Under the pieces are notes generated by a model that had not been told where the DNA came from, ran no database searches, and saw nothing but the letters and a program-made list of their open reading frames with translations. Of a stretch of DNA of 64,000 nucleotides, positions 531 through 41,700 are shown one piece after another. Each line of letters begins with the position of its first letter. The stretch's first letter is position 1. The stretch comes from Pirellulales bacterium (GTDB lineage: Bacteria > Planctomycetota > Planctomycetia > Pirellulales > PALSA-1355), in NCBI GenBank assembly GCA_963733035.1, contig CAVTBU010000005.1, positions 2,400,001 to 2,464,000 on the forward strand. The letters run 5' to 3'. The position numbers and the translations under genes were made by a program.

Positions 531-2663
531 ATGGCCAAGCAACCCAGCAAAGCCGGCAAGCGCCCCCGCAAAGCTCCCCCCAAAAGCAAGCGCCAGGTGG
601 CCGAGACCGCTAGCGACGTCGTCGAGCACGAAACGGCCGAGGCCAGCGAGAATATCGCCGCGACAAACGGCCACAAGTCGCGTCGCCGGGCCACCGCCCA
701 GAGCATGGCTGCCAGTCAGCGCGATATCTCGGTCAGCGAGTTCTTCGCCAAGAATCGCCACCTGCTCGGCTTCGATAACCTGCGAAAGGCCCTGCTCACG
801 ACGATCAAGGAAGCGGTCGACAATTCGCTCGACGCATGTGAAGAGGCCGGCATCTTGCCAGAAATCTGGGTGCACGTCGAACAAACTGGCACGAACCGCT
901 ACAAGGTGGGCGTGCAGGACAACGGCCCGGGAATTCTCAAGAAACAGATTCCGCTGATCTTTGGCAAGCTGCTCTACGGCTCGAAGTTTCATCGCCTGCG
1001 AATGAGCCGCGGGCAGCAGGGCATCGGCATCAGCGCGGCCGGCATGTACGGCGTGCTAACCACCGGAAAACCGGTGAAAATCGTCTCGAAGACGTCGCCC
1101 CGCAAACCGGCGCACTACTACGAAATCAAAATCGACACCAAGCGCAACCTGCCGGAAATCCTCAACGGCCGCGGTGAAGGCGAAGACATTCCGCCGGGGG
1201 CCGCCGGCACCACCTACATCGAAAAGCACGGCATCGAGTGGATCGAGGTCGATCACGGCACGCGCGTAACGATCGAGCTCGAGGGCAAGTACGTGCGCGG
1301 AAAGGGAAGCGTCGACGAATACCTCGAACAGACGGCGATCGCCAACCCGCATGTCACGATCCATTATCTCGACCCCGAAGTCGGGGCGGGGCAGGGGGAA
1401 GAAAAACTCTACGAGCGCTCGACCGATTTGCTGCCGCGCGAACCGAAGGAAATCAAGCCGCACCCCTACGGCATCGAACTGGGCATGCTGGTCACCATGC
1501 TTTCCGACGCCCGCGGGCAGACGCTCTCGCAGTTTCTCACCTCGAGCTTCAGCAAAGTCAGCTCGGCGGTAGCTTCGCGCGTGTGCCAGACCGCCGGTGT
1601 TGGCACGCGCACCAGCACATCAAAAGTCGGCCGCAACGAAGCCGACAAACTGTTTCAGGCCTTGCGCGAGACGAGAATCGCCTCGCCCTCGACGGACTGC
1701 ATTTCGCCGATCGGCGAGGAGCTCTTGCTCAAGGGTTTGCATCACGTCGTGCCGGGGGAGTTTTACGTCGCCGCCACGCGGCCGCCGGCCGTTTATCGCG
1801 GTAATCCGTTTCAGATCGAAGTGGCCCTGGCCTATGGCGGCATGTCGAGTGCCAACCGCGTGCCATTCGACGTGTTGGAGCAACTGCTCAGCGAAACCGA
1901 CGCCCGCACGCTACGGCAGTTTTTAACGACCACGTTCTATGGCCTGGGGAGCGACGCGGCCGATCAGATCATCAAGGAGGCCGAGCTCAGCCCGCGTACT
2001 TCGGCTGGCAAGATGAAGCCCAAGGAGATCAAACGGCTGCACGAGGCCATGCGAAACGTCAATCTCGAAGCGGGCCAGACGATGAACGTGCTGCGGTATG
2101 CCAACCGCGTGCCGCTGCAGTTTCAGCCGGCCGCCTGTGCGATCACGCAAACCGTGATCGGCACCAACTGGCGAAGCTACGGGCTGAGCCAAACCCGGGG
2201 CGGCCTGCCAACCGGTCCGGTGACGATCATGGTGCACATGGCCAGCGTGTGGGTGCCGTTCACCAGCGAGTCAAAAGAGGCGATCGCCGGCTATCCGGAA
2301 ATTCAAAAGGAATTGCGGCTGGCGCTTCAATCGGCCGGACGGAAGCTGGGCATGTATCTGCGTCGCCGCCTGAAGGTCAAGCAGGAAGGAGAGCGCCGCA
2401 ACATCTTCCTCCGCTACCTGGGCGAAGTGGCCAACGCCGTGAGCGATATCAACAACGCCGACGCCAAAAAACTCTATGACCAACTATTGCTGGTCGCCAA
2501 GAAGAAGACCGCCACGGCCGACGCGAAGCTGGACGAGCGCGGCCGCATTATCGAAGAAACCGAAGAAGCCCTGGAAGCCGACCCCAGCGTGCTCATCGTC
2601 GAGAAACCGAGCGAAGTCGGCATCCGAGGAGCAGAGCAAACCAATGGCCAAACGAACTCGTAA
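531..2663 (+). CDS. top6B: DNA topoisomerase VI subunit B
   Basis: Motifs ISVSEFFAKNRHLLGF, EAVDNSLDA, VQDNGPG and SRGQQGIGISAA (GHKL ATPase); H2TH domain; transducer motifs RYANRVPL and VPFTSESKEAIA. Confidence 0.97.
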   Translation: MAKQPSKAGKRPRKAPPKSKRQVAETASDVVEHETAEASENIAATNGHKSRRRATAQSMAASQRDISVSEFFAKNRHLLGFDNLRKALLTTIKEAVDNSLDACEEAGILPEIWVHVEQTGTNRYKVGVQDNGPGILKKQIPLIFGKLLYGSKFHRLRMSRGQQGIGISAAGMYGVLTTGKPVKIVSKTSPRKPAHYYEIKIDTKRNLPEILNGRGEGEDIPPGAAGTTYIEKHGIEWIEVDHGTRVTIELEGKYVRGKGSVDEYLEQTAIANPHVTIHYLDPEVGAGQGEEKLYERSTDLLPREPKEIKPHPYGIELGMLVTMLSDARGQTLSQFLTSSFSKVSSAVASRVCQTAGVGTRTSTSKVGRNEADKLFQALRETRIASPSTDCISPIGEELLLKGLHHVVPGEFYVAATRPPAVYRGNPFQIEVALAYGGMSSANRVPFDVLEQLLSETDARTLRQFLTTTFYGLGSDAADQIIKEAELSPRTSAGKMKPKEIKRLHEAMRNVNLEAGQTMNVLRYANRVPLQFQPAACAITQTVIGTNWRSYGLSQTRGGLPTGPVTIMVHMASVWVPFTSESKEAIAGYPEIQKELRLALQSAGRKLGMYLRRRLKVKQEGERRNIFLRYLGEVANAVSDINNADAKKLYDQLLLVAKKKTATADAKLDERGRIIEETEEALEADPSVLIVEKPSEVGIRGAEQTNGQTNS

Positions 2664-3815
2664 AGCCGCCGCTCAGAACGGCAAGTCCGCCCCGGACAAG
2701 GAAAAGGTCGTCCTCAGCGATCGCGACAAGAAGACGCTCAAGGACCTGGTCGGGCTGGCGGATCGAATTGTCGTCGATGCCGAGAAGCGGCGCGATCCGT
2801 ACCTCGAGATTCCCACCCGCGCCTGTCGAACGTGCGCTACAACAAAGCCAAGCGGCGGATCGAAATGGGTTCGAACAAGAACCGCCGCCAACTATTCAAC
2901 CTCTCGCAAGCCAAGAGCTACATGCAGACGGTGCTGGTCGCCAGCGGCTGTAAACAACTGATCGAACAGGGCAAGACGCTCAGCTTGCGAGGTCTGTACT
3001 ACAAGCTCAAACACTCGGTCGAAGGTACCCGCGAGGAAACGTTCGAAGACCAGGACGAATGCGATCCGGTGATCGAGGACGTCGAAGTCGGCCTCAATAG
3101 CCTGCGCGAGGAGTTGCACCTGTATGCTTCGAACCGCGGTAATCTGGCCGGGCCGCTTACGCTATTCGATCACGCCACGGGCGACGAAATTGACTGCGCC
3201 CGGATGGGTTCGGCCGGGTACAGTATTCCGTCGATCGTCGAGAACGACGTGATCGAATTCAAGAAGTGCACGGCCAAGTTCATCCTGCACGTCGAAAAAG
3301 ACACCGTTTGGCGGCGGTTCTCGGAAGACAAGTTCTGGCAGAAGTACAACTGCATTCTCACGCACGGCAATGGCCAGCCTCCCCGCGGCGTGCGGCGAAT
3401 GCTCAGCAGACTGCACAACGAATACAAGCTGCCGGTCTACTGCCTGTTGGATAATGATCCGTGGGGATACTACATCTACAGCGTGATCAAACAGGGCTCC
3501 ATCAATCTGGCATTCGAATCCGCGCGGATGGCGATTCCCGAGGCCAAATTCCTGGGCCTGCGGTCCCGCGACTTCGAGCGCTGCGAACTCTCGCCCAGCG
3601 TGAAGATCAATCTCAGCGACACCGACATCAAGCGGGCCAGACAAATCGCCAACTATCCGTGGTTCGAGCACAAGAAGCCCTGGCAAAAGGAAATCGAGCA
3701 GATGCTCAAGAACGGCTTCAAGCTGGAAGTCGAATCGCTCATCTCCAAAGACATCAGCTACGTCACCGAGGTCTACACCCCCGAGCGGCTGGCGGAAGGC
3801 GATTGGCTGGATTGA
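2644..3815 (+). CDS. top6A: DNA topoisomerase VI subunit A (Spo11-like), with a 1-bp frameshift near 2821
   Basis: ATG 2644 (MAKRTRK...YLEIPTR) changes frame into LSNVRYNK. It carries SLRGLYY (catalytic Tyr region), EKDTVW and Toprim DNDPWG motifs, and overlaps top6B by 20 bp. Confidence 0.93.
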
Positions 3816-11049: not shown

Positions 11050-14000
11050 CTATCGAAGCTTGGCGCTAAGGAGCTGTTCAATCTCCTGCCACGCGTTCGC
11101 CGAACCGACTAGCTTGCCGTCAGGACCAATCAGATAGTACGCCGGAACCGAGCTGATCCCCAATTGATGCATCATGTCGGAGTCGTCACCGAGATAGTTC
11201 TGGGCCCAATTCCAGCCGCCGTCTCGCGCGAGCGACTTGGCCGCGGCAGGGTCTTTATCGACGTTTAAGCCGACGACCGTCAGTGGGCTATTGGAACGTT
11301 GTAGCACGGTCGACATCACTTGGGGCATGGCTGCCAGGCACGGTTTACACCAGCTGGCCCACACGTGAAAGAGTACATAGCGGTCCGTCATTTCGTTGAC
11401 TAACCGCACGCGCCCCTCGGAATCGGTAAATTTGTATGCGCGCATATCGGAGCCGACTCGTGGACCGCGCCGGCAGGGGACATCGATTTCGCCGAGCGAC
11501 ACTTCGCCTGACTGCTGATTTTCCGCGATTGTGATTGGAATGACCTTCGCACCAATGCTCTCGACAAGACAGCCGGCGGGTTGTTCGTAGAGCTGAATGA
11601 CCAGATCATATGAGCCTGGACGAACTCCCTGGATCCGCATGCGACCATCCTCAGTAAGCTTCACGAAGTGGTTCTCCCGCGTCGCCACCCAGGCCGAAAA
11701 ACCAGGCTCCCGCAGCCAGGCTGTATCCAAGGGGCCATTGGGATCAAAACTCAAGGGTTCCGCGTCGCGTGGATACGCAACTCCGGGGCTACGGCTGACC
11801 AGATAGTTGAGCGACCAGCGCTTACTGAGCGAGTCGTTGTCGCCGCCGGTCGCCACGACGCGGCCGGTCACCGTCGCCCCGTCGCCGCCGAGCAATAGCT
11901 CAACCTGGTCCCCCGCCTTCAAATCAAGCGGCACCGACTCGCCCGAGGTCAGCACCGAGTCCTCCCAGGGGCCCAGCGCGGGTCGCACCGATGCGCGCAT
12001 CGGCGGCAGCCGTTCGAACCGAAAGTTGCCGTCGAGATCGGTCTTGGTCGAGAATCCATCCTGAAACCGCGCTTCCGTCAGCGCGCGTTGGGCCAGCGGC
12101 AAAAGGTAAATCCCCGTGTTGGCAACCGGCTTGTCGTCTTGCACAAGGCGTCCAGATACGGAAGCCCACGGCCGAAGCGTAATGGTTTCAATCGGTTCAT
12201 CCCGTTCGCGATACACTTCGGCAAACCCCGTCTTGTTGAACGCCCGAATCCGCTGCGGCTCGAACGTCGCCGGCAGGTCAAAGGTGTTCTTGCCGACGAC
12301 CGGGAAGGTGATTCCAAATTCCGCCTCATGCCGATCGACGCTAAAGTGCGGCGAGGTGGTCGGCGTTCCGACCGCAACGGTGAACTTGTTGACCGGCGCA
12401 CCGCTGACGTCGACAACCGTGCTCCGCAGCGCGGGCACCTTTTCGAGCGCGAAGTTCTCCTCGAGCGGCGGATCCCCGTCCCCAAGCGACTTCTCGCCGA
12501 GCGCCGTGCGATATCCGTCGGCTTCAATCCGCACACGATACCGATTGCCCGTCGGTCCATAGGTATCGAATTCGATCTTGTAGTCGCCGTCTTTTCCCTC
12601 GGCCACACTCCCGTCTTGAAAATCGGTCGAGTAAAAGTCGGGGCGGAACGCTTTGACCGGAATCACGCGAAACTGCTCAATCAGCTTGCCACTCTCGGCA
12701 TCGGTGACGCGTCCAAAGATCGTGACCGGCGATGATAGCACTACGGTGTGCGGCTCGGCTTTGGCGACGAGCGTCAACTCTTTCATCGCATACCCAACCG
12801 CGCCGATGCGGTAGCCCACCCCGTCCGTGGGAGCCCAGGCCCAGCGATAAATCCCGTCCTTGTCTGCCTTGCGCGGGATTCTGGAATCCGGAACGTTCGG
12901 ATGGTCCTGGTTGAAGATCGCTTCGGTTCCTCGCCACTCGCCAATCTGCACACTGGCTTCCGGAATCGGCTGGCCCTGCTGGTTGACAATCTTGATTGTG
13001 ATCGAATGGCCCGGCTGGAGCTTGAAATCCACCGCCTTGAGCGCCGCGTTCACCCGAATCTTTCGCTGCTCCGGCGCGAAACCAGGCGCCAGCACCGTGA
13101 TCGGATACTCGCCCGGCGCGAGCCGCAAGGTCTCGTATTTGCCCGAGGCGTCGATCTGAGTTTCATTCACTGCTTGTCCCCAGTACGGTCGATCGTTCCA
13201 GACAACGAGCCCTTCGGTCACCGGATGACCGTCCGGCCCGGTGATCGATCCGGTTACCGCGACTCCGCGATCCAGCGTCAACCGGGCCGTACCCGCCCGT
13301 AGCTCTTCGGTCGTGATCCCCTGCTGCGTCTGCAACTCGCCGTACTTCGTGTCGCCCGCAAAGTCTCGATGCGTAACCATCAACTGGAAACGGTAGTCGG
13401 ACTTTTCGCGCGGCGCCGGCGCGTTAACGATCTCCCATCGGCCGTCCTTGTCGGTAACCGCTGCCCCCTCATCTTCGGCAAGCCAGGTGCTCACGATCGG
13501 CTGGGGATTCGCACCCCAGTATTCGTAGTCGGATACTACCTTCACTTGAACCCGAGCGTCGGACACCGGCGTCCCCTCCTCATCTACAATCACCCCGCTC
13601 AGACGCGTGCCCGGTTGCAGCCGAAACTCATACGTCTCGGGCAGCAAGCGGCCATCCTCGTGCGTTCCCTCGGCAAAATTCACAAACTGCGGCACATAGC
13701 CGGCCTTCGAAGGCCACAGTCGAAGGATCCGCAGCCGCTGTGAAATCTCGACCTGCACCTCCCCCCGCTCGTTTGCCGTGTAGTTGCGGTTCGGCGGTCG
13801 CTTCGACCCCGGATCAACCGCCCAGATGCTCGCATAGACGTTCGCCTCGGGTATTGGCTTTCCCGCCTCGTCGAGCACGCGGATCACCATCGTCCGCGAC
13901 GCGCTGGGATCTTCCGCCCCGGGCGTTTCTTCTGTATGCGGTTTCTCTGTTTGCGTCTTTTCTGCGTTCGACTTCGCCGTGGCCGGCTGCTTTACCGCGG

Positions 14001-15174
14001 CACTTTCCTGCTCCTCCGCACGCGAGGTCAATTGCAACGAACCAACGACGATCGAGATCGCAATCGCCGCAATTCCAACCACGCGGGCCACGGGCTTCGA
14101 CATCGATGCCCGGCGTCGCGTCGCGTCCAGGATCGCGCGGATCCGGCTTTCGACCTGCGCCGTGCGCGCCATCGCCACCGTGCCAACCCGCTGCCGACAG
14201 CGATACTCCTTCGCCACGTTCAACAGCGTCTCCGCATAACTACTGGGCCGGCTCGTGTGCGCGACCACCACGTCGTCGCAGGCAATCTCTCGCAACCGTT
14301 TCATCTCGGCCGCGCCCCACCAGGCCAGCGGATTGAACCAGTACACCGCACAGCACAGCCCCGCGATCGATTGCGTCAGCACGTCGCGGCGCTGCACGTG
14401 GGCCAGTTCATGTAGCAAGACCTGCCGCCGGCGGTCGATCGTCCATTTGTCGGCATCGCTCGGCAAAAGCACCACTGGGCGCCAGCAGCCAACTACCATC
14501 GGCGAAACGGCTCCGGAATGCGACCGCAGCGGAACAACCCGCCGCACGCCCAGTTGCCGTGCAACCGTGTCTCGCGATTGGCACCAGCTTTCGCTTTCGA
14601 CCTTCGCACAGTGGCGCACAGCGCGCGCCACGGCAACACCTTGCTGAAGGAATCTCGCAACCCCAATGGCCATTCCGGCGCACCATGCGACCAGCAACCA
14701 TGTCGCCGGCGAGGGCCATTCGATCGCCCTGCGGGCAGCCGTGGACAGTGCTTGAGCTCGCCGTTCCCGATTCTTCCGCGCCAACTCGATCGCAGGCGGA
14801 ATCTCCGCGAATGCAGGGGTTTGCGGCATGCGGCCCGCCTGAGAGGCGAAAGCGTCCGCGCGAGCAGTCTCTCGAATCGGAACGCTGGCAGTGGCCGTGG
14901 CTGCCGGTTGCGAATCCTGAGACGGCAGCAACGGCAACGCCACGTTGGGCAGCAGCAGCGTCACCATTGGGATCAGGAGACAACTGGCGAAACCAAGCGC
15001 CCAAATGTGGTGATTCACGGCGGCCGAGCGCCGTCGGCAGGCGCTCGCAACGCCGAGCGTAATGGCCAGCAGCAGAAACGAACGGACCGCGATATTCACC
15101 AGCGGAAGATGCTCGAAGAGTTGCGTGGCCATTTCGTCATTCCTTCGTGCGTGCGCGTCGGATTGCTCGTTCAA
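11050..15174 (-). CDS. BlaR1/MecR1-type M56 metallopeptidase fused to carboxypeptidase-regulatory-like (Ig/transthyretin) repeats and a C-terminal TlpA/thioredoxin domain
   Basis: HELAHVQRRD, YWFNPLAW and REIACDD (M56); repeated GxVxDxxGxPVxxA beta domains; C-terminal WASWCKPC. The start may be ATG 15132. Confidence 0.9.
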   Translation of the reverse strand: MNEQSDAHARRNDEMATQLFEHLPLVNIAVRSFLLLAITLGVASACRRRSAAVNHHIWALGFASCLLIPMVTLLLPNVALPLLPSQDSQPAATATASVPIRETARADAFASQAGRMPQTPAFAEIPPAIELARKNRERRAQALSTAARRAIEWPSPATWLLVAWCAGMAIGVARFLQQGVAVARAVRHCAKVESESWCQSRDTVARQLGVRRVVPLRSHSGAVSPMVVGCWRPVVLLPSDADKWTIDRRRQVLLHELAHVQRRDVLTQSIAGLCCAVYWFNPLAWWGAAEMKRLREIACDDVVVAHTSRPSSYAETLLNVAKEYRCRQRVGTVAMARTAQVESRIRAILDATRRRASMSKPVARVVGIAAIAISIVVGSLQLTSRAEEQESAAVKQPATAKSNAEKTQTEKPHTEETPGAEDPSASRTMVIRVLDEAGKPIPEANVYASIWAVDPGSKRPPNRNYTANERGEVQVEISQRLRILRLWPSKAGYVPQFVNFAEGTHEDGRLLPETYEFRLQPGTRLSGVIVDEEGTPVSDARVQVKVVSDYEYWGANPQPIVSTWLAEDEGAAVTDKDGRWEIVNAPAPREKSDYRFQLMVTHRDFAGDTKYGELQTQQGITTEELRAGTARLTLDRGVAVTGSITGPDGHPVTEGLVVWNDRPYWGQAVNETQIDASGKYETLRLAPGEYPITVLAPGFAPEQRKIRVNAALKAVDFKLQPGHSITIKIVNQQGQPIPEASVQIGEWRGTEAIFNQDHPNVPDSRIPRKADKDGIYRWAWAPTDGVGYRIGAVGYAMKELTLVAKAEPHTVVLSSPVTIFGRVTDAESGKLIEQFRVIPVKAFRPDFYSTDFQDGSVAEGKDGDYKIEFDTYGPTGNRYRVRIEADGYRTALGEKSLGDGDPPLEENFALEKVPALRSTVVDVSGAPVNKFTVAVGTPTTSPHFSVDRHEAEFGITFPVVGKNTFDLPATFEPQRIRAFNKTGFAEVYRERDEPIETITLRPWASVSGRLVQDDKPVANTGIYLLPLAQRALTEARFQDGFSTKTDLDGNFRFERLPPMRASVRPALGPWEDSVLTSGESVPLDLKAGDQVELLLGGDGATVTGRVVATGGDNDSLSKRWSLNYLVSRSPGVAYPRDAEPLSFDPNGPLDTAWLREPGFSAWVATRENHFVKLTEDGRMRIQGVRPGSYDLVIQLYEQPAGCLVESIGAKVIPITIAENQQSGEVSLGEIDVPCRRGPRVGSDMRAYKFTDSEGRVRLVNEMTDRYVLFHVWASWCKPCLAAMPQVMSTVLQRSNSPLTVVGLNVDKDPAAAKSLARDGGWNWAQNYLGDDSDMMHQLGISSVPAYYLIGPDGKLVGSANAWQEIEQLLSAKLR

Positions 15175-31831: not shown

Positions 31832-32218
31832 ATGGCCCGACCGACCTCCGATCTGCTGACCGAACGCGAAACCCAATTGATGGACGTCCTCTGGGACCAG
31901 GGGCCGGCCACCGCCGAAGACGTCCGACAAGCACTACCGGATCAGCCGCACGATTCCACGGTGCGCACGCTGCTGCGCGTACTCAAACAAAAGGGCTACG
32001 TGCGAATTCGCGGCCGGCAACCGGCGCTGTACGAAGCCGCCGTGCCGCGCGAAAAAGTGCAAGGCCGGGCCGCCCAGAGCTTGCTCAAGCGGTTCTTCGG
32101 TGGTTCGGCAGAGCAGCTTGTCATGCGCTTGGTCGAGGACGAAAAGCTTTCCCCGGAAGAATTGGCCCGCCTGCGTAAGAACCTATCACGCGGCCGGCCG
32201 CGCGGGAGGAAACCATGA
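31832..32218 (+). CDS. BlaI/MecI/CopY family repressor
   Basis: LTERETQLMDVLW...STVRTLLRVLKQKGYV...RFFGGS. Confidence 0.95.
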   Translation: MARPTSDLLTERETQLMDVLWDQGPATAEDVRQALPDQPHDSTVRTLLRVLKQKGYVRIRGRQPALYEAAVPREKVQGRAAQSLLKRFFGGSAEQLVMRLVEDEKLSPEELARLRKNLSRGRPRGRKP

Positions 32219-35200
32219 ACGGATCTTTGATCGCATTGCTAGTGGTTGTTTCATTACTACTGACTGTCAGTCTGATCGCGGACGACTGCCTGTCACGGCG
32301 AAGGCCACTATTGATGTCCGCGCTGTGGAACGGCTCGTTGATTGCCCTACTGTTAGCACTGCCCACGGCGATGTTCATGCCGCGCTGGGAGATACCGCTG
32401 CTGCCGCCAGTCGAATCGCATGGCGAGATGGCAGCCACCAACGAACCCGTCGTGACGGATGACCTCGTCGAAGCTCAGCCGATATACGTTCCACCGACCT
32501 TCGACGTGCAGCCACTACCGGCAACAATCGCCGTGCCGACGGTTTCGAGACCATCGCCGATAGATTGGACTCGCATCATCAGGCGCGGCCTGACGGTCGC
32601 CTACGTGCTGGGGGCGGCCGTCTCGCTGGTGCGACTGGCAGCCAATCTGGTCGCCGTAACGAAATTACGAGACGCGGCACGCCATTTGGAACAAGCCACG
32701 TGGCGATCGCGCCTGGAGGTTTGGCGCGCGAAAACCGGCATCTGCGCCCGACCGGATTTGTTATTCAGCGAGCAAGTCTCCGTACCGATTACGCTCGGGT
32801 GGCGGCGTCCAGCGATCGTGATTCCTCAAGACTTGATCAACCGTGCTCGAGCGGAGGCGATCGATGCGATCCTGGTGCATGAGCTGGCACATGTGCGGCG
32901 CGCCGATTGCGCATGGCAATTCGTCGAGCATCTGGTGCACGTTTTTTATTGGTTCCATCCACTTGCCTGGCCAATCGGCCGCCGAATCGCAGCGGTGCGG
33001 GAAAGAGCTTGCGACGACTTTGCCATCTACCTGCTCGCCGATCGCCGGGCCTATGCCGAGACGTTGCTCGCCATGGCCACGCGTATGGCCTCGCGACACA
33101 GGCTCACCCTGGCGATGGCCGTGGTACGGACAACAAAGCTCGAAAGGCGATTGACCGCCATTGAATCGAGCCGCGGCGCAGCGCTGGTCCGCCTAGGCGG
33201 CTGCACGCGAGCCGCACTGACCTTGGGGCTTTCGGCTGTCGTTGCCGCCGGGCTGGTCGCGCGGCTGGTTCATGCCGAGGCTGAGCCGGCGCCGCCGCGC
33301 GGCGAAGCAATTGCGTCCGCTGAGTCGGACTCGGCCCCTCCAATGCAGCCCGAGGAGAAACAGCAACGCGAGAGGGATACTCCGCTTGCTGGAGAGAAAG
33401 AGTCTGCATCGGCGAAGGACTACACGTTCACCGACAACGTCGTAAACAAGCTTTCGCAGCGAAAACGCGACGCGGCAAGGCGTCTCTTCGTCGATCTCCT
33501 TAGGCAGCAGTACGACCAGGCCGTGGAGCTGTTTTCGCCGCAATTGCGCGAGACTCTTACCGGCGAGAGACTCGCGCGGCTCTTCGACAAGCTGGCCAAA
33601 CAATTTGGCAAGCTTCAGCCGCGGGCAGTGCTCTACCTCGGCCGGCTTGGCGACAAGGAACTTCCCGATCTAATGCTCATCTGGGGACAAAAGCATTTCC
33701 TCTCCGTGCGCCTGCTGTTCGATGATCAAGACAAGATCGCTGGCTTGTGGATCGGCAGCAACTCCTTGGCCGCCCAGCCCGATCAACCACCGATCAAGGT
33801 GGGCGAAGATGAACGTGAGTTCACTACCGCCAGCATGATTGCATTTGGCGAACCCATGATGGCGCTAGTCGCCAAAGCCAACCTTTCGCTTATCGTGGAG
33901 TGGTTCGATGCCAGCGGTAAGCAGTTGACATTTGGTGAGCCGCCCGGGGTTTTTGTCTCGTTCTTTCGCGCCATGCACGACGGCGAACCCGCTCAAGCAA
34001 GCGACTGGAACGACACCGTCGACCACATCCGCTGGCGACACATCGCCAACGAATCGCCGCTGGAGAATCGGGCGGAACACCTGGCGCCAGGGACCTACCG
34101 CGCGTTTTGGTCGCGCGTCAGGGACGCGGGTTATCAACTGAGCGACCCGATCACGCTCGACGGCTCGGTGCAAGCCACGGTCGTGAAGACGACGGAGCAG
34201 CCAGGTGCGAAAGTGATCGTTAAGCTCGTCGACGATCAGACTGGCAAGCCCATCCAAGGCGCCGACGTGCGCGTCACCAGCGACGACCCACGAATTCCGT
34301 CCTACCGCTACGGCAGCAGCGAGTTCCCGGAAGCAACGATCACGTTCGACGGCATGCTATCGGGCCGCCATCGCATCGATGCCCATCGACCGGCAAAGCA
34401 GCCCGGCGAGAACGACTACGAACAAGTCGAGACGCCTGTCTATGTCGAGCTTGAGCGCGGAAAAACCTCCGAAGTCACGATCAAGCTGCGTGGCAAGCCC
34501 GCGGCAGATCAAGGTCTCAATGCTCGCTTACGGTGGATCGCCACCGGTAAAGTCATCGATTTGGAGGGACGCCCCATCGCCGGCGCAATCGTGCGGGCGG
34601 CAACGGGCGAGGGCACGCTTCTCGGCGGAGGATCGACGACGACCGACGCCGACGGGCGCTTTCGTCTGCACTTCGGCGAGGGGATTTGGAGCGACAATCC
34701 CGTGAACTTGCAAGTGGCCGTGCTCTCTGCGTCCAAGCCCGGCTACTTCGAAACCAACCTGAACCGGCAGGGCGGCCTCGCCATGGCACGCAGCCAACCC
34801 GCTGAAGACGACCTGCGGCACTGGGGTGGTCAGAAAGTCGTCTTTCTGCCCGGCGAGCCGCGCGAGCTGAACTTCGAGCTGGCCCGGGCGGCGACCATTC
34901 GCGTGGAGTTGGTGGACGCAGCAGGAGAAGACCTGGCCGAGGCGAGCGTTTCGCTATCGGATCAGGCAAAGGAGTGGAACGGCGTGGCGTCGGGTGAAAC
35001 CAGTCGCGGCGGCGATTACACCTTTGAGAATGTGCCGGTCGGCAGAGCGTCGTGGATTGCCGCGACCGTGGACAAAAAGCTGAGTGCCCGGTCGCTGCCG
35101 TTCACCTTGCCGCGCGCGGAAAACTACCGCATGAAATTGAGATTTCGGCAGGACGAAGCCAACGATCTGAATCTGCTGGAGGTGCAATCGATCACCAGCG

Positions 35201-35925
35201 CAGCGGGCGAGGAAATCAAGGACAAGGTCCTGGGCGATGACCCCTTGGCGCGGCCGCCCGTCACCGATGCAGACCAGGCCGAAGCTCGCGACCTCCTCAA
35301 GAAACTACTGGACGCCAACTCCCCGTGGTGGTTTGCGCGGCCGCCAGCGGAAATCGCCAGCATTCGCTACGACTTCTGCTTCGCCAGCGGTGATCGCCGC
35401 AACTATGCGTTCGAGCAGGACCAGGAGAAGTTCGATCATTGGGTCGCGCATGGATTGTCGTATTCGTCGGCAACCGCCATGCTCTGCGCGAACCGCAACG
35501 CGGTGGCCTTCCGGCTGGTGGAGATTCAGCCCAACGTGGTTCGGCTGGCCTATACGACGACGACTCGCTGGGGATACTCCGTCGGCAACGGCGTGCAGGG
35601 AACATGGCGCGGCTTTCAATCGGGTGGCGTGCGCGATGGCATCCTCTCGATCGATCCGCGGCGGTGGGTCCCCTTGGAGCATAAGTTTGGCGATATGCGC
35701 GAAGTGTTTTCCGACTACGTCAAGCTGCCCTCCGGCCAGTGGGCGCCGCGGAGCGTGCAAATCATCGAGGGAGATCGCCCGAAGTTCGATTGGAAGTTCG
35801 ATCTCTACGAGCCGGGCGTCTGGCTGTTCTCTTCGAGTCGCGACACGCGGAACCCCGACGCACCGCCGATCGCCCGGCTGGAGAACGTAATGATCAACGG
35901 CGCTCCCGGAAAACTCATCAACTAG
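32215..35925 (+). CDS. BlaR1-type M56 metallopeptidase with a large periplasmic region (DUF3887-like and carboxypeptidase-regulatory-like domains)
   Basis: HELAHVRRAD, YWFHPLAW and RERACDD motifs; repeated GxVxDxxGxPIxGA domains; ATGA overlap with blaI. Confidence 0.9.
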   Translation: MNGSLIALLVVVSLLLTVSLIADDCLSRRRPLLMSALWNGSLIALLLALPTAMFMPRWEIPLLPPVESHGEMAATNEPVVTDDLVEAQPIYVPPTFDVQPLPATIAVPTVSRPSPIDWTRIIRRGLTVAYVLGAAVSLVRLAANLVAVTKLRDAARHLEQATWRSRLEVWRAKTGICARPDLLFSEQVSVPITLGWRRPAIVIPQDLINRARAEAIDAILVHELAHVRRADCAWQFVEHLVHVFYWFHPLAWPIGRRIAAVRERACDDFAIYLLADRRAYAETLLAMATRMASRHRLTLAMAVVRTTKLERRLTAIESSRGAALVRLGGCTRAALTLGLSAVVAAGLVARLVHAEAEPAPPRGEAIASAESDSAPPMQPEEKQQRERDTPLAGEKESASAKDYTFTDNVVNKLSQRKRDAARRLFVDLLRQQYDQAVELFSPQLRETLTGERLARLFDKLAKQFGKLQPRAVLYLGRLGDKELPDLMLIWGQKHFLSVRLLFDDQDKIAGLWIGSNSLAAQPDQPPIKVGEDEREFTTASMIAFGEPMMALVAKANLSLIVEWFDASGKQLTFGEPPGVFVSFFRAMHDGEPAQASDWNDTVDHIRWRHIANESPLENRAEHLAPGTYRAFWSRVRDAGYQLSDPITLDGSVQATVVKTTEQPGAKVIVKLVDDQTGKPIQGADVRVTSDDPRIPSYRYGSSEFPEATITFDGMLSGRHRIDAHRPAKQPGENDYEQVETPVYVELERGKTSEVTIKLRGKPAADQGLNARLRWIATGKVIDLEGRPIAGAIVRAATGEGTLLGGGSTTTDADGRFRLHFGEGIWSDNPVNLQVAVLSASKPGYFETNLNRQGGLAMARSQPAEDDLRHWGGQKVVFLPGEPRELNFELARAATIRVELVDAAGEDLAEASVSLSDQAKEWNGVASGETSRGGDYTFENVPVGRASWIAATVDKKLSARSLPFTLPRAENYRMKLRFRQDEANDLNLLEVQSITSAAGEEIKDKVLGDDPLARPPVTDADQAEARDLLKKLLDANSPWWFARPPAEIASIRYDFCFASGDRRNYAFEQDQEKFDHWVAHGLSYSSATAMLCANRNAVAFRLVEIQPNVVRLAYTTTTRWGYSVGNGVQGTWRGFQSGGVRDGILSIDPRRWVPLEHKFGDMREVFSDYVKLPSGQWAPRSVQIIEGDRPKFDWKFDLYEPGVWLFSSSRDTRNPDAPPIARLENVMINGAPGKLIN

Positions 35926-35964: not shown

Positions 35965-35993
35965 TTGACAGTACCTGTCGACCCTGCTACAGT
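35965..35993 (+). promoter_or_regulatory. sigma70 promoter upstream of the cobalamin riboswitch
   Basis: TTGACA-N17-TACAGT. Confidence 0.65.
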
Positions 35994-36004
35994 ACCCCGC
36001 ATAG

Positions 36005-36212
36005 CGTGCGTTGGTGGTCGGCGTTTGCCTCTGAAACGTCGACAAAACAGGGAACTCCGGTGCAATTCCGGGACGGCCCCGCCGCTGTAACCGAGTGCTT
36101 AAGGAAGCTGTTTCTTAGCCATTGTTGAGCTGGCCGAAGTCGCAAGACTTTGCCCGCGTGCAACGAGAAGGCCAGTCTTCCCCAGCTCGGGAGTCAGAAG
36201 ACCTACCAACGC
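36005..36212 (+). promoter_or_regulatory. Cobalamin (B12) riboswitch
   Basis: Hallmarks AACAGGGAACTCCGGTGCAATTCCGG, CCCCGCCGCTGTAA, AGCCATTG...GAGAAGGC and the B12 box GAGTCAGAAGACCTACC. Confidence 0.95.
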
Positions 36213-36392
36213 TTGACTGACGGAAGTTTTCGCGAGGGACGAGAGCTTTCGACCGTTCGTAGGCCTCAATTAGGACGCCGCTAATCGTCGGCTTGTGCCT
36301 TGTAACCCAACGCGGTTTGGCCGTCTGACCGTACGCGCTTGCGCGCATCTGTCCGCCGTCCCCGCTCGTTGCCGTTGGCATGCGCCACGACG

Positions 36393-37271
36393 ATGCGCTC
36401 ATCGTTTGCCGTGACTCCGTCCGCAAGCAATCAACGTCGCCGAATCGCCGCCTTCACCCTGGTGGAGCTGTTGGTCGTGATCGCGATCGTCGGGCTGCTC
36501 GTGGCGCTGTTGCTGCCGGCGGTGCAGGCCTCACGCGAAGCCGCCCGGAGGACGAAGTGCCTGTCGAATCTGCGTCAACTCGGCGTGGCGCTGCAAACGT
36601 ATCACGACGTGTTTCACGTCTTCCCGCGGGGCGGGTGGCCGGCCGCAAGCGCCAACATCAGTTGGACCGCTTCGATCCTGCCCCACTTGGAAGAGCAATC
36701 GCTCTACGATCGTCTGAATCGCACCGTGCCGTATACCGACGTTACGAATCGCGACGCCGGCCAGACGCCCTTGGCCCTGGTGCTGTGCCCTTCGTCGCCC
36801 AAAGAGAGCATCTGGAAATCGTCGGCCGATTTACCGGCTTCCGCGTCGAATCGTTTTGCACGCACCGATTATGGAGCGATCAGCGGCGAACGCGGACTGC
36901 GGTCGCCCACGGCAAGCAATGTGCCAGAGCGCGGCGTCATGATTCTGGAGCGCAACATCTCCCTGTCGGGCATCCTCGACGGCGCTTCGCACACGATTCT
37001 CATTGGCGAGGCGCCCGAGGGAATCCATTCGCTGTGGATCAGCGTTCGCAATCTTTACGACCAGTCGGGACCGATCAACGCCCCGGCGACATATGCGCCC
37101 GCCTTCGTCTTCTTCGACTACGGTCAGGAACTGAGCAGCTATCACCCAGAGGGTGCGCAGGTGCTATTCGCCGATGGCTCCGCGCGGCTGCTCGACAAAG
37201 AGCTCGACGTGCGGACTCTGGCGGCGCTCTGCTCCCGCGACGGCGGCGAAGCGATCGACGGTGACTTTTGA
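36393..37271 (+). CDS. DUF1559 prepilin-type N-terminal cleavage/methylation protein
   Basis: AFTLVELLVVIAIVGLLVALLLPAVQASREAARR and a C-terminal H-X9-DG motif (HPEGAQVLFADG). The start is uncertain (36339-36393). Confidence 0.95.
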   Translation: MRSSFAVTPSASNQRRRIAAFTLVELLVVIAIVGLLVALLLPAVQASREAARRTKCLSNLRQLGVALQTYHDVFHVFPRGGWPAASANISWTASILPHLEEQSLYDRLNRTVPYTDVTNRDAGQTPLALVLCPSSPKESIWKSSADLPASASNRFARTDYGAISGERGLRSPTASNVPERGVMILERNISLSGILDGASHTILIGEAPEGIHSLWISVRNLYDQSGPINAPATYAPAFVFFDYGQELSSYHPEGAQVLFADGSARLLDKELDVRTLAALCSRDGGEAIDGDF

Positions 37272-37397
37272 TCGGGTGGCAACGATGTATTTCTCAATCT
37301 CCAACACACACACGATGAGGCAGGTGGCGCGTCACCTAGCTCGTATTGCTTGAACTTCATTGGCAACTTACTCACACCGCGCGGAGTGCACCGAAGC

Positions 37398-38312
37398 ATG
37401 AAAAAATTGATAAGAAACTATCTGAGGAGCGGACTGCTGTTGGCGTCGACGCTGGCGGCGCTCGGGCAGGCGGCACGGGGCGACATTGTGAACTTCGACG
37501 ATCTTCCACTGGGCCCCAACTCCCATTGGAGCGGGCCGGATCCGACCGGCGTGGATCAGCCCGACCCGTACGGCGGTCCGCTGCCGGTGAAAGTCGGCAG
37601 CTTCACCAGCGGCGGCGTAAAATTCGGCAACGAATACAATCCCAACTACGACAGTTGGGGCGGCTTCGCCTATTCCAACGATACCGACAACACGACGGTC
37701 GGTTACGGCAATCAGTTTGGAGTCTACGCCGGATCGGGAAATGATCCGGGCGGCGATAACTTCGGCGTGGCGTTTGGCTACGTCGACAACTTCAGCCCGT
37801 CGGACCCGAACCAGCTCGACCAACTGCCGTATCTCGAGTTTCCGCAGACGGCGAATCCCCAGTCCATTTACGTCACGAACATGACCTATGCCGCAACCAC
37901 GATGCGCGACGGAAACCCGTTTGCCAAACAATTCGGCGGAGCAAGCGGCAACGACCCCGATTGGTTCAAGCTGTCGATCTACGGAACCGATGCACAAGGG
38001 AGCCTGGTGCCTGGATCCGTCGAGTTCTATCTGGCCGACTATCGCTTTGCCGACAACGCCAGCGACTATATTCTCGACAGTTGGGCGCCCGTCGACCTAT
38101 CAGCGCTGGGGAGTGTGACGCGATTGTATTTCAATCTTTCGTCAAGTGACTCCGGGCCCTTCGGCATGAACACGCCGAGCACGTTTGCGATCGACGACTT
38201 GCAGTTCATACTCGTGCCGGAACCAGGCACAAGCGTCTTGGCCGGCCTGGGATTGTTGGCGCTGGCATGGGCCGGCAGCCGCGGGCGGCGACCCCGTCAT
38301 CCTGCCGCCTGA
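37398..38312 (+). CDS. DUF4465 domain protein with a PEP-CTERM sorting signal
   Basis: WGGFAYSN, YVTNMTYA, DWFKL, VEFYLADYR and GMNTPSTFAIDD (DUF4465-type); signal peptide; C-terminal VPEP-TM-RGRR. Confidence 0.88.
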   Translation: MKKLIRNYLRSGLLLASTLAALGQAARGDIVNFDDLPLGPNSHWSGPDPTGVDQPDPYGGPLPVKVGSFTSGGVKFGNEYNPNYDSWGGFAYSNDTDNTTVGYGNQFGVYAGSGNDPGGDNFGVAFGYVDNFSPSDPNQLDQLPYLEFPQTANPQSIYVTNMTYAATTMRDGNPFAKQFGGASGNDPDWFKLSIYGTDAQGSLVPGSVEFYLADYRFADNASDYILDSWAPVDLSALGSVTRLYFNLSSSDSGPFGMNTPSTFAIDDLQFILVPEPGTSVLAGLGLLALAWAGSRGRRPRHPAA

Positions 38313-38746
38313 CCTCTAACCAACAAGTCACCTGCCGCCTGGCAACGGCCACGACTTCCCGCGAGTTAATGGCCTGATTCTCAAGTTTGTTATTTTTCTA
38401 CTCACATCGATGTTAATGTTCTAACGGCCAAAATCATTGACTTCCCGCATCGGTGGGGGTAGTTTAAACGCGTGCGACATGAACCAAGGCCATGTATCAA
38501 GACGCCGATGAAGCAAGCCGGTGACAATCATCCATCGCGATGAGCTTGTCGACGGACTCTCTTTCGTAACTCCCGCCGGTCGCTACGGCCCGGTGAGCAG
38601 TTCCACCTGGTAGCATTTGGGCCATTTCTCTGCGCGGGCACGAATCGACGGCTTCGTGCGTCATTCTGGCCCGAATGATGCGCACGGAAAGAGAGTGGAT
38701 ATACCCATGCACCAGTTTGCTTTTGGCGGCGCAGGGACCGTTTGTC

Positions 38747-40770
38747 ATGAAAGAACATTTCATTCTCGCCGCTTTCGTTTTATCCCTTTTTGTCGGGCGC
38801 GGGCCCCGGCCGCGGACTACAACTGGAAATCGCCGGTCTCTGGCAGCGCCGGTACGGCGAGTAATTGGACGCCAACCGGCGTGCCAGGGCAGTCGGACAG
38901 GGCAATCTTCAACCTGGGTTCGGCCGGCTACACTGTTTCACCCGGAAACGCGTTCGTCGGTCAAGTCTACGTCAACAACGACACCGTGACTGTCACTCGT
39001 AGCCTCGTTGACGCTGTTGAGCCCAACCTGCCGGCCATTCAACTCGGCAACAACTCAGGTGACATGGCCAAGCTAACATTGACCGACAGCGTGACGTTGA
39101 TGGGAAACGAAATCTGGATCGGCGCCCAGGCGAACACGCAAGGCACGATTACCATCAACCAGGGCATGTTGTCGACATCGACGTTTCAACCCGGTAACTC
39201 GCCCGCGCAGATTGTCGTGGGCGCCGCTGGGACAGGAACGCTCTCCGTACTGACGGGCACCGTGCAGGAGATTGGTACGACAATCATCGCCAGAGACGCC
39301 CTGTCGCACGGAACTTTCAGCTTGGATGGCAGCGACTCGCTCTACTATTCACTGGGATCCGGATTGACCGTCGGGCAGGGGGGAGTCGGAACGTTCTCAC
39401 TCACGCAGGATTCAGTCGCCTATGTGGCGGGGAACCTAATGGTGGGAGAGGATGCCGGATCAAATGGCACGATCAACGTCGCAAGCCAATCGACGCTGAC
39501 CTCGGCTTTGGGAAGCTATGTCATGCAATCGGCCACGATCGGCGGGGCGGGAACCGGCGAGCTTGACGTTACGGGCGGGGGCAAAGCCTACCTGCTGGGT
39601 CCCCTGGTCGTGGGCCAGGCACAAGGTTCCGAAGGAACGGTCATCGTCGATGGATCGCAATCGACCCTCGCACCATTTAGCTCCGGTACGCTACCCAAAT
39701 TATCGCTTACCGTGGGTGATGCCGGTGCGGGAACGATGTCGGTACTAAACGGCGCACAAACCTCACTGGGCGGCACGATCACAATCGGTAATAGTGCCGG
39801 CAGCATGGGCCATTTCATCGTCGACGGCGCCGGCTCGCACGTGCAATCGGCACAATTCGGCAGCCAATCGGTCGACAAGATGATCGTGGGAGCGTCTGGC
39901 AACGGAACGCTCTCGGTGACGGGGGGAGGTGTCGTCGACCTCATCAATGCCAACGTTTATGTCGCGCAAAACGCCGGCTCCATGGGAACGATCGAGGTCG
40001 CCTCGGGCTCCCAGTTGATCGCCAACAACTTGGACATCGGCGCCGTGGGAACCGGCCTGGTTTCGATCGGCAACGGTAGTAAGGTCAGAGTCTGGACCGG
40101 GCCCGTGGAGAATCACGCCGGAGGTACGATCGACCTACAAGGCGGAACGCTCCAACAGTACTTTGACAACACGAACGTCGAAGTCCACAACTCCGGCACA
40201 CTCGACAACAACGGTACGGTGATCGGAAACGTCACCAATTTGCCAACAGGAATTGTGTCTGGTTCGGGCACGATCACCGGAACGCTATCCAACCAAGGGG
40301 GCATGCTCGCACCAGGCAACTCACCGGGAACGCTGTCCGCCGGTTCGCTCGATTTCCAATCCGGCACGCTGCAGATTGAAATGAACCGAGCAATGGAAGC
40401 CGCCGGCGGTCCCGCCGGTTGGGACCTGCTGAACATCCAAGGCACGGCGGCACTCGCTGGCCCCCTCCAAATCGAACTCGTTTCGTTGTCGCCAAACGAT
40501 CAGCCCGGAAACGTCTACGATTTCAACCCTTTGCAAGACTATCAATGGCTCTTCCTGAACGCCAGTGGAGGAATCACGGGCTTCGATGCCAGCAGTTTTG
40601 CGATCGACTTATCGCATTTCTCCAATGCCTATTCGGGCCAATTCTTTGTGACGGAAGTCGGTAACGCGCTTTTACTCAACTACAGCGTGCCAGAACCGGC
40701 GACGCTGGTGCTGGCCGGCGTCGGACTGGTGCTGTTCGCAGGGGCGGCCAGGCGCCGCCGACGGTCTTGA
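38747..40770 (+). CDS. PEP-CTERM surface protein with T5SS/PEP-CTERM-associated beta-helix repeats, frameshifted near 38790-38810
   Basis: Signal peptide MKEHFILAAFVLSL in one frame; the mature part (VGxxGxGTLSV repeats, LAPGNSPGTL, VPEP-TM-RRRR) is in another. Confidence 0.85.
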
Positions 40771-40899
40771 ACGCAAACCCGCTTCAGGTAAGCGGCTTTA
40801 CTTGGACAACCCAGTGCCAACAAATTACGCCAAGCCCAAATGCAGCCCCGGGCCGGCAGCCGATTGACAGCGCGCCATCGGCTCGGATTCAATCGAGTC

Positions 40900-41700
40900 A
40901 TGAGCTCTTCGCGAGACCACAATCGGCAAGCCTGGGACAAGCGCGCACGCGCCGGGGCACGCTTCACCAAGCCGGCAGCGGACGAAGAATTTCGCGATCC
41001 ATTGGCCGCAGTCGATCCCTCCGGCTGGCTCGGCAGCAGTATCACGGGCAAGCGCGTGTTGTGCCTGGCGGCCGGCGGCGGCCGGCAGAGCGCGCTGTAT
41101 GCCGCGGCCGGCAGTACGGTGACGGTGGTCGACATCAGCGGCGAAATGCTCGCCATCGATCGCGAAGTGGCAGCCGAGCGCGGCCTGTCGCTGCGAACCG
41201 TGGAAGCTTCGATGGACGATCTCTCGGCGCTCGCGCCGGCGAGCTTCGAGATCGTGATCCATCCGGTGAGCACGTGTTACGTACCTGACGTGCTCAAGGT
41301 CTTTCGCGAAGTGGCGCGGGTGCTGGTTTCCGGCGGCGTGTACGTGAGTCAGCACAAGCAACCGACGAGTTTGCAAACCTCGGTCGAGCCAACCGCACGA
41401 GGATACGAGGTCGCCGAGCCGTATTATCGCCGAGGTCCGCTGCCGCCGGTGGTGGGCAGCTCGCATCGCGAGGCGGGTACGCTCGAATTTTTGCATCGCT
41501 GGGAAGAACTCGTCGGCGGAATATGCCGCGCCGGCTTCGTGATCGAAGACCTCGTCGAACCGGTGCGCGCCGACGAAACCGCAGCCCCGGGAACGTTCGC
41601 GCATCGCAGCCAATACGTAGCCCCCTACGTGCGCATCAAGGCCCGCCGCCGCGGCGACGCGCAAGTGACCGCCGAGCCAGCCAAAGTCTGGTTGCCGTAA
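40900..41700 (+). CDS. Class I SAM-dependent methyltransferase
   Basis: VLCLAAGGG, VVDIS and RVLVSGG motifs. Confidence 0.9.
   Translation: MSSSRDHNRQAWDKRARAGARFTKPAADEEFRDPLAAVDPSGWLGSSITGKRVLCLAAGGGRQSALYAAAGSTVTVVDISGEMLAIDREVAAERGLSLRTVEASMDDLSALAPASFEIVIHPVSTCYVPDVLKVFREVARVLVSGGVYVSQHKQPTSLQTSVEPTARGYEVAEPYYRRGPLPPVVGSSHREAGTLEFLHRWEELVGGICRAGFVIEDLVEPVRADETAAPGTFAHRSQYVAPYVRIKARRRGDAQVTAEPAKVWLP

Follow-up and report, generated by a model that had tools for sequence, protein, structure and literature searches.

In a 64,000-nucleotide stretch of DNA from a Pirellulales bacterium (GenBank assembly GCA_963733035.1, contig CAVTBU010000005.1, positions 2,400,001 to 2,464,000 of the forward strand; hereafter the window, in whose own numbering coordinates are given unless noted), a cobalamin riboswitch is followed on the same strand by a DUF1559 prepilin-type gene and then by a DUF4465 gene whose product belongs to the family of the B12-binding BtuJ proteins of Bacteroides. 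We consider it probable that this locus is a B12-repressed corrinoid-acquisition operon with a dedicated pilin-like protein in the same pathway. That the operon serves B12 acquisition in the first place we hold to be highly likely, and that the pilin-like protein acts specifically in uptake across the outer envelope is a possibility that we advance only tentatively. A sequence-only reading of this stretch had described a promoter-like site, the riboswitch, the DUF1559 gene and a DUF4465 gene whose product bears both a signal peptide and a PEP-CTERM tail, and all four were present on the + strand in the order it had claimed.

The riboswitch aptamer (35995..36224, + strand) matched the cobalamin covariance model RF00174 along its full length (model positions 1-189 of 189) with 86.9 bits against a gathering score of 31.5 (E 4.6e-20), and it was the sole Rfam match in the 64 kb window. 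RF00174 matched nowhere else in the genome, which is available as a 92% complete assembly in 10 contigs. It begins 2 nt past a sigma-70-like promoter site on the same strand (35965..35993, +), which consists of TTGACA, a 17-nt spacer and a TG-extended TACAGT and agrees with the consensus at 10 of 12 positions. A consensus scan at this level returned 2 promoter-like sites in 3 kb where 0.9 were expected, and the two loci most closely related to this one (L003 and L017 in our numbering of related loci) retain both hexamers. From the aptamer end, 168 nt of leader (36225..36392, +), a putative expression platform with blocks of sequence conserved in the same two relatives, lead to the ATG of the DUF1559 gene at 36393. 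Between the DUF1559 gene (36393..37271, +, 292 aa) and the DUF4465 gene (37398..38312, +, 304 aa), the scan of the 126-nt spacer (37272..37397, +) found neither a promoter-like site nor a + strand terminator-like site, and the two genes would form a putative operon, co-transcribed and repressed by B12. A search for sequencing runs listed 8, none of them recorded as RNA, and the best DNA run contained 0.48 of the sampled words.

The connection to cobalamin at the protein level comes from the second gene. Its product matched PF14717 (DUF4465) at 2.8e-52, with 178.1 bits against a cut-off of 25, and it is the only DUF4465 gene of the genome. The protein's signal peptide is of the Sec type and lacks a lipobox cysteine, and its C-terminus is a PEP-CTERM tail (...VPEPGTSVLAGLGLLALAWAGSRGRRPRH; PF07589, 22.3 bits against a cut-off of 20.7), an architecture that suggests a surface location. 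Translation likely starts at the ATG at 37398 (MKKLIRNYL..., 304 aa), which has a GGAG 11 nt upstream; residue numbers given here for this protein were taken from a 301-aa form starting at 37407 and are 3 lower than those of the 304-aa form. Its best solved relative was 9hmu, the B12-bound D5EK51, at E 8.8e-27 over residues 26-263, followed by 9fct (BtuJ1, 1.5e-16) and 9i2l (1.7e-10). Excerpts of two published studies agree with the statement of the sequence-only reading that DUF4465 lipoproteins in B12-uptake loci of Bacteroidota bind cobalamin: BtuJ1 and BtuJ2 of Bacteroides thetaiotaomicron, both DUF4465 proteins, bind B12 (PMC12751083), as do six further members, among them a protein of the planctomycete Mucisphaera calidilacus and two verrucomicrobial ones (PMC13398666, which also supplies the B12-bound structure 9HMU), such that in these excerpts all of the tested members bind (8/8, one of them planctomycete). 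Two of the three halo tyrosines are also kept in the window protein, Tyr97 and Tyr146 of BtuJ1, whose roles are described in an excerpt of PMC12751083, corresponding in a pairwise alignment to the Tyr of TTVGY and of VTNMTY. By homology, then, the window protein may be expected to bind B12.

The gene content of the genome, evaluated next to that of the window, revealed an organism that appears to depend on imported B12. It encodes several B12-dependent enzymes (a full-length five-domain MetH, a methylmalonyl-CoA mutase with its B12-binding subunit and MeaB, and a B12-radical-SAM enzyme), and MetE was not found in the genome search. Matches to TP_methylase numbered only two, too few for corrin synthesis, so the corrin pathway is taken to be absent. 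A whole-genome search gave no match for a FecCD/BtuC permease, and none turned up for an equivalent of BtuB either, as the genome's only TonB-dependent receptor is of the TOL_0244 family and scored 105 bits with the BtuB model TIGR01779 against a cut-off of 599.7. Because the assembly is 92% complete, these results on missing genes are not proof of absence. With B12 enzymes present and MetE, the corrin pathway and BtuB/BtuC not found, this looks like an organism that relies on B12 from outside and lacks the textbook importer. The window itself fits the earlier description in this respect, with no btuB, btuFCD or metE in Pfam scans of 41 of its open reading frames (ORFs). The lone receptor is split into two overlapping ORFs (a Plug part of 489 aa and a barrel part of 251 aa; G000:C3:78222-80373, equal to L083:4223-6374), which may reflect a frameshift, a pseudogene or an assembly error, and it adjoins YfiR-like, CHASE8 sensor kinase and GGDEF genes.

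The order riboswitch, DUF1559, DUF4465 recurs in other genomes, a point that the sequence-only reading had proposed to check. From 515 confirmed relatives in a DUF4465 scan with one genome per species, the best 79 loci were taken, and among these were 19 further loci with this order, in some of which one additional gene lies in between or ahead. All 19 were labelled Planctomycetota or subgroups of it, and carriers include Tautonia sociabilis, Aeoliella sp. SH292, Rhodopirellula sallentina and Novipirellula sp. SH528; one more DUF1559-first locus (L032), whose 5' end is cut off, stands outside the 19. A second arrangement, in which the riboswitch is followed by DUF4465 and then by a different prepilin-type gene of 266-320 aa, was present at 14 of the 79 loci. 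Every pilin-linked DUF4465 locus of either kind (19/19 and 14/14, or 33/33) had an RF00174 match above the gathering score on the correct strand.

DUF1559 is among the most expanded protein families of Planctomycetota and, to our knowledge, has no assigned function; this genome alone holds 30 copies. The riboswitch-linked copies appear, from their sequences, to be a clade dedicated to this operon. When 44 proteins were placed on a quick maximum-likelihood tree, the DUF1559 protein of the window and the 19 riboswitch-linked ones fell on one side of a branch with a Shimodaira-Hasegawa-like approximate likelihood ratio (SH-aLRT) of 96, and 23 paralogs from the same genome as the window together with one unlinked paralog of L008 fell outside it; seven short own-genome hits and the second kind of pilin-like gene, all with fewer than 150 residues aligned, were left out of the tree. 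Search scores agree with the tree, the linked orthologues reaching 169-405 bits against 136 bits for the best own paralog, and at least 119 further 90%-identity clusters reach 292 bits or higher with the window protein. Residues invariant in the clade include W91, N119, C132, Y160, G165, E206, W215, H251 and D261. A phylum-wide count that gave DUF1559 orthologues in 4 of 401 genomes was dismissed as an undercount, because no more than 6 candidates were scored in each genome, where paralogs can number about 200. Elsewhere in this genome, three more DUF1559 paralogs share a strand with genes for secreted proteins (L094:538-3478, L095:1667-4383 and L096:321-2644). Two of the neighbours have carbohydrate-binding modules (CBM96 and NPCBM) and tails that look PEP-CTERM-like by eye only, one neighbour has a Pfam PEP-CTERM match, and the L094 cluster additionally holds a DUF3386/DUF4198 protein. 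There are hints here that pairs of a pilin-like protein and a surface binder are a general pattern.

What kind of protein the DUF1559 gene encodes bears directly on its possible role in the pathway. Its start is likely the ATG at 36393 and not the alternative TTG at 36339, and the resulting length of 292 aa agrees with the public gene call. Profile matches comprised PF07596 (1.6e-42, 146.9 bits against a cut-off of 23.3), N_methyl (25.8 bits against 21.2), TIGR02532 (18.4 against 16.3) and the H-X9-DG model TIGR04294 (29.5 bits against 19). The prepilin leader reads ...RRIAA and then FTLVELL with Glu at +5, and this Glu (E25) is nearly invariant across 134 relatives. An AlphaFold model built on an alignment of those 134 relatives reached a predicted local distance difference test score (pLDDT) of 93.7 and a predicted template modelling score (pTM) of 0.86 and was used in place of a poor model from 20 sequences (pLDDT 55.3); it shows a long N-terminal helix (residues 23-74) and an alpha/beta head. 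In a structural search independent of Foldseek, pilins or pseudopilins made up 17 of the 19 top rows at Z 2.2-4.8, among them PilA4 (4.8), EpsG (4.2) and PulG (3.5), and we read the protein as pilin-like with a much enlarged head. The DUF1559 head (residues 47-292, 134 rows), modelled as a complex with the DUF4465 domain (residues 24-268, 46 rows), scored 0.00; run without controls, this prediction weighs neither way.

The same structural rows bear on the proposal that the DUF1559 protein is a corrinoid-binding, membrane-anchored periplasmic protein that, like BtuF, passes corrinoid from the surface binder to an inner-membrane transporter without any filament. Its large globular part (~220 residues beyond the helix) is strongly conserved in the clade, the Pfam identifier of DUF1559 is SBP_bac_10, members bear the NCBI name 'DUF1559 family PulG-like putative transporter', and a BtuF-type partner is not evident, no FecCD gene having been found in the genome. 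A periplasmic-binding-protein fold, which the Pfam identifier suggested, is disfavoured by the pilin rows of the structural search, and since the structural matches are pilins and not periplasmic binding proteins, we regard a BtuF-like role as quite improbable.

The N-terminal region further resembles the GspG/PulG pseudopilins (TIGR01710 at 2.8e-09; 5wda at E 5.7e-05), and this, along with the EpsG and PulG rows above, favours another account, in which the DUF1559 protein would serve a type II secretion-like machine as a pseudopilin for one particular cargo, the DUF4465 binder, which the machine exports, with B12 taken up by an unrelated route. The genome does encode secretion machinery, with Secretin in at least 4 genes and Peptidase_A24 prepilin peptidases at two places, and three DUF1559 paralogs that lie beside PEP-CTERM or carbohydrate-binding secreted proteins fit a scheme of one pseudopilin per cargo. 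We nevertheless think this account unlikely, as the binder has its own Sec signal peptide and PEP-CTERM tail in a genome with two Exosortase_EpsH genes, and as the binder in other phyla adjoins an importer, the TonB-dependent receptor, and not secretion genes, according to our survey of related loci (below) and an excerpt of PMC13398666.

Under the B12-acquisition reading that we prefer, scarcity of cobalamin would leave both genes expressed by way of the riboswitch. The DUF4465 protein would be exported by Sec, sorted by exosortase via its PEP-CTERM tail and capture corrinoid at the cell surface in the manner of BtuJ. The DUF1559 protein would be cut by a prepilin peptidase and then act as a pilin- or pseudopilin-type component of the same pathway, filling the place that the TonB-dependent BtuB has in other phyla, and its most likely task would be to help carry either corrinoid itself or the binder loaded with it past the outer envelope by way of a secretin-type machine. 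Secretins, two prepilin peptidases and two exosortases are encoded in this genome, in keeping with such a scheme. Entry to the cytoplasm would fall to a transporter encoded elsewhere, for which a DUF6580/DUF4430 gene pair is the candidate. We infer every step that involves the pilin-like protein. The sequence-only reading had put forward a capture system made of a surface binder and a pilin-like adaptor with pilus-linked uptake; its capture part draws support from the riboswitch, from binding in the DUF4465 family, from the recurrence of the locus and from a genome with no BtuB equivalent found, and the adaptor role and pilus-linked uptake do not share that support, what points to them being the conserved operon structure and the presumed co-regulation.

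TonB-dependent receptors were surveyed in the related loci through their Plug domain, in the first 400 residues of 117 ORFs of at least 430 aa from the 79 loci at E <= 1e-10, a procedure that gives a lower bound for receptors. Of the 79 loci, 11 had a Plug domain; their labels were Bacteroidota, Proteobacteria, Verrucomicrobiota, Pontiella or Lentisphaerales, and a pilin-like gene accompanied it in only one of them (L065). This Lentisphaerales locus (L065:2060-9035) holds two cobalamin riboswitches in tandem operons, one leading to a TonB-dependent receptor and the other to a 1071-aa protein (two DUF4465 domains and an unnamed partner domain described below) with a prepilin-type gene 2 nt later. 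In a whole-genome search, 11 of the 19 genomes that carry the DUF1559-first arrangement had no Plug match at all, including the complete chromosome of Aeoliella sp. SH292; the completeness of most of the 19 was not established. We count this complementarity between receptor and pilin-like gene in favour of the preferred reading.

For passage through the inner membrane, the candidate rests in part on DUF6580, a small membrane protein with the automatic cluster label 'putative transport protein' that is encoded in five related riboswitch operons (L006, L028, L034, L038 and L046). The only DUF6580 gene of our genome adjoins its only DUF4430 gene on the - strand (G000:C5:1122851-1124089, equal to L084:4851-6089), and DUF4430 is described in an excerpt of PMC4350170 as the C-terminal domain of transcobalamins. 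We therefore name this pair as a candidate inner-membrane route for B12. Among the 19 carrier genomes, 13 had DUF6580 and only weak FecCD matches, 5 had strong FecCD (E <= 1e-85) and no DUF6580, and 1 had neither; the five carriers with strong FecCD cluster on the DUF1559 tree, so this pattern may reflect a single evolutionary event. Sequence searches of PDB gave no match for DUF6580, either with the single sequence or with a 6-row profile, or for the DUF4430 protein. In riboswitch operons of the second arrangement, a Dph6-like ATP pyrophosphatase (PF01902) gene lies between the pilin-like gene and DUF6580 (L028:3951-4643, L034:5404-6096, L038:5481-6173 and L046:8613-9257).

These data also allow a broader and more speculative reading, one we think doubtful as it stands. 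DUF1559 proteins would be the substrate-specific pilins of a secretin-based uptake machine that replaces TonB-dependent transport in many Planctomycetota, each paralog having its own surface binder, and the riboswitch-linked clade would hand cobalamin from the PEP-CTERM-anchored DUF4465 protein towards DUF6580/DUF4430. It is hinted at because 11 of 19 carriers had no Plug match, three paralogs lie beside secreted proteins and DUF6580 occurs in riboswitch operons.

A number of observations weigh against B12 acquisition by this locus or against a pilin-like part in it. In the riboswitch region, the predicted fold of the 216-nt leader was not more stable than those of shuffled sequences (z +1.35), no terminator-like + strand site was found by scan after the aptamer or after the second gene, and neither fold nor terminator scans of the leader clearly identified an expression platform. 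On the protein side, the DUF1559 prepilin cleavage site has Ala at -1 instead of the usual Gly, both residues being found at this position among orthologues in a 20-sequence alignment; the pilin fold match is weak, with Z at most 4.8; Foldseek against PDB returned nothing at E <= 0.001 and aligned only the helix of the DUF1559 model; and a search for fusions found 175 longer DUF4465 proteins, of which the 120 that were listed contain no DUF1559 or N_methyl domain. As for distribution, 8 of the 19 carrier genomes have 1-3 Plug-domain proteins, and an evenly drawn sample of the phylum had DUF4465 in only 6 of 401 genomes (6 of 244 high-quality ones), so that most relatives manage without it and the module is accessory and not the general B12 route of the phylum.

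A further point concerns the binding loop, which reads MNTPST in the window protein and MNTPSY in BtuJ1, such that the hallmark Tyr245 is replaced by Thr; the window's nearest relatives have F, F, S and L there. Excerpts of the two studies describe the tyrosine of the MNTP(S/A)Y loop as contacting B12 and kept in 97% of homologues (PMC13398666) and as 'universally present' (PMC12751083). Among 87 DUF4465 domains aligned from the 79 related loci and the window, the position was Y in 73, F in 9, T in 2, and S, L and C in 1 each, and thus 14 of the 87 do without the tyrosine. Affinity may therefore differ or be lost, and the window protein is for this reason classed as a family homologue for which B12 binding is presumed and not assured.

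Loss of the hallmark tyrosine in this DUF4465 sub-clade is also a point in favour of an operon that responds to B12 without serving uptake, whether in adhesion or surface change or in sequestering corrinoids from competitors. PEP-CTERM proteins and pilins are typical of surface and adhesion functions, and in Bacteroides the BtuJ proteins act as reservoir and vesicle cargo, according to an excerpt of PMC12751083. Set against this are the organism's dependence on imported B12, the finding that this is the sole riboswitch-controlled locus, and the presence of the putative membrane transporter DUF6580 in related operons, and we judge a role outside uptake to be very improbable.

Other features of the window were noted around the operon. 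Downstream, between the DUF4465 gene and a methyltransferase gene, lies a gene for a 717-aa PEP-CTERM repeat protein (38617-40770) that has no homologue in the other loci. The class I S-adenosylmethionine (SAM) methyltransferase (40840..41700, +; Methyltransf_11, 2.1e-16) is of uncertain membership in the module; homologues lie directly 3' of DUF4465 in L017 and L003 and further downstream in L009, L030 and L033, and the window protein weakly resembles a model of corrinoid-protein-associated methyltransferases (32.7 bits against a cut-off of 180). Two very long sensors of BlaR1/M56 type with carboxypeptidase-regulatory-like domains are encoded at 31832-35925 (+, 1236 aa) and 11050-15174 (-, 1374 aa). 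The first lies directly upstream of the riboswitch promoter and is preceded by a BlaI-type repressor gene, and an M56 protein occupies the same position in L017. Adjacent genes for topoisomerase VI subunits B and A were found at 531-3815 (+).

Beyond the window, an unnamed domain family of ~250 aa stands beside DUF4465 or is fused to it in 51 of 80 loci from several phyla (for example L003:5086-5952, L009:7082-7909 and L041:3874-4764, with fusions to DUF4465 at L028:1281-3098 and in L058). Its members have no Pfam match except for a PEP-CTERM tail in many of them. The family is absent from the window, gave 0 hidden Markov model (HMM) matches in this genome and had no solved relative in a PDB sequence search.

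Comparison with known systems places the riboswitch and the DUF4465 binder among familiar kinds. As in the btu loci of B. thetaiotaomicron, itself a B12 auxotroph (BtuJ1/BtuJ2; 9FCT, 9I2L), a cobalamin riboswitch stands over a secreted DUF4465 protein, and the window protein shares with BtuJ1 its domain family, the MNTP loop and two of three halo tyrosines. Unlike there, where BtuJ lipoproteins work with BtuB, BtuG and BtuFCD, the protein here has a PEP-CTERM tail and no lipobox, BtuB and BtuC were not found, the sole operon partner is a pilin-like gene, and Tyr245 is Thr. D5EK51 of Coraliomargarita akajimensis (9HMU) and 'Pan' of Mucisphaera calidilacus are likewise DUF4465 proteins of the Planctomycetes-Verrucomicrobia-Chlamydiae (PVC) superphylum, and those were shown to bind B12; the neighbours reported for that family in an excerpt of the study are, in contrast to ours, TonB-dependent barrels, ATP-binding cassette (ABC) transporters and beta-propellers (PMC13398666). 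The locus also resembles the BtuB-BtuFCD system of E. coli in having a B12-sensing riboswitch upstream of B12-acquisition genes and differs from it in that none of its protein components were found in window or genome. The DUF1559 protein, for its part, shares with the GspG/PulG pseudopilins and type IV pilins a prepilin-type leader, FTLVE with Glu5, a long N-terminal helix and an alpha/beta head, and departs from known pilins in a head about twice as large, the H-X9-DG motif, Z values no higher than 4.8 and no assembly genes nearby. A pilus drawing its ligand in through a secretin would have an analogue in the DNA-uptake pili, with their ligand-binding minor pilin ComP.

In a literature search we found no paper linking DUF1559 to cobalamin, nothing on DUF6580 and nothing relevant on H-X9-DG/prepilin proteins or on cobalamin riboswitches of Planctomycetes. 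As far as its main text goes, PMC13398666 does not contain the words pilin, DUF1559, PEP-CTERM or Planctomyc, and its supplements could list such neighbours. What is new is the pairing with a pilin-like gene, the PEP-CTERM anchoring and the missing classical transporters.

Taken singly, a riboswitch or a DUF4465 gene would be ordinary, and the value of this locus lies in their pairing with a pilin-like gene and in the missing classical transporters. By tying one DUF1559 clade to a ligand-specific RNA switch and to a B12-binding family, it provides a first concrete and testable context for DUF1559, and it bears on how a 1.3-kDa cofactor passes the outer membrane in bacteria with few or no TonB-dependent receptors. 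If the broader reading of DUF1559 proteins as substrate-specific pilins is true, the riboswitch-linked clade would be the first of the DUF1559 family with a defined ligand, cobalamin.

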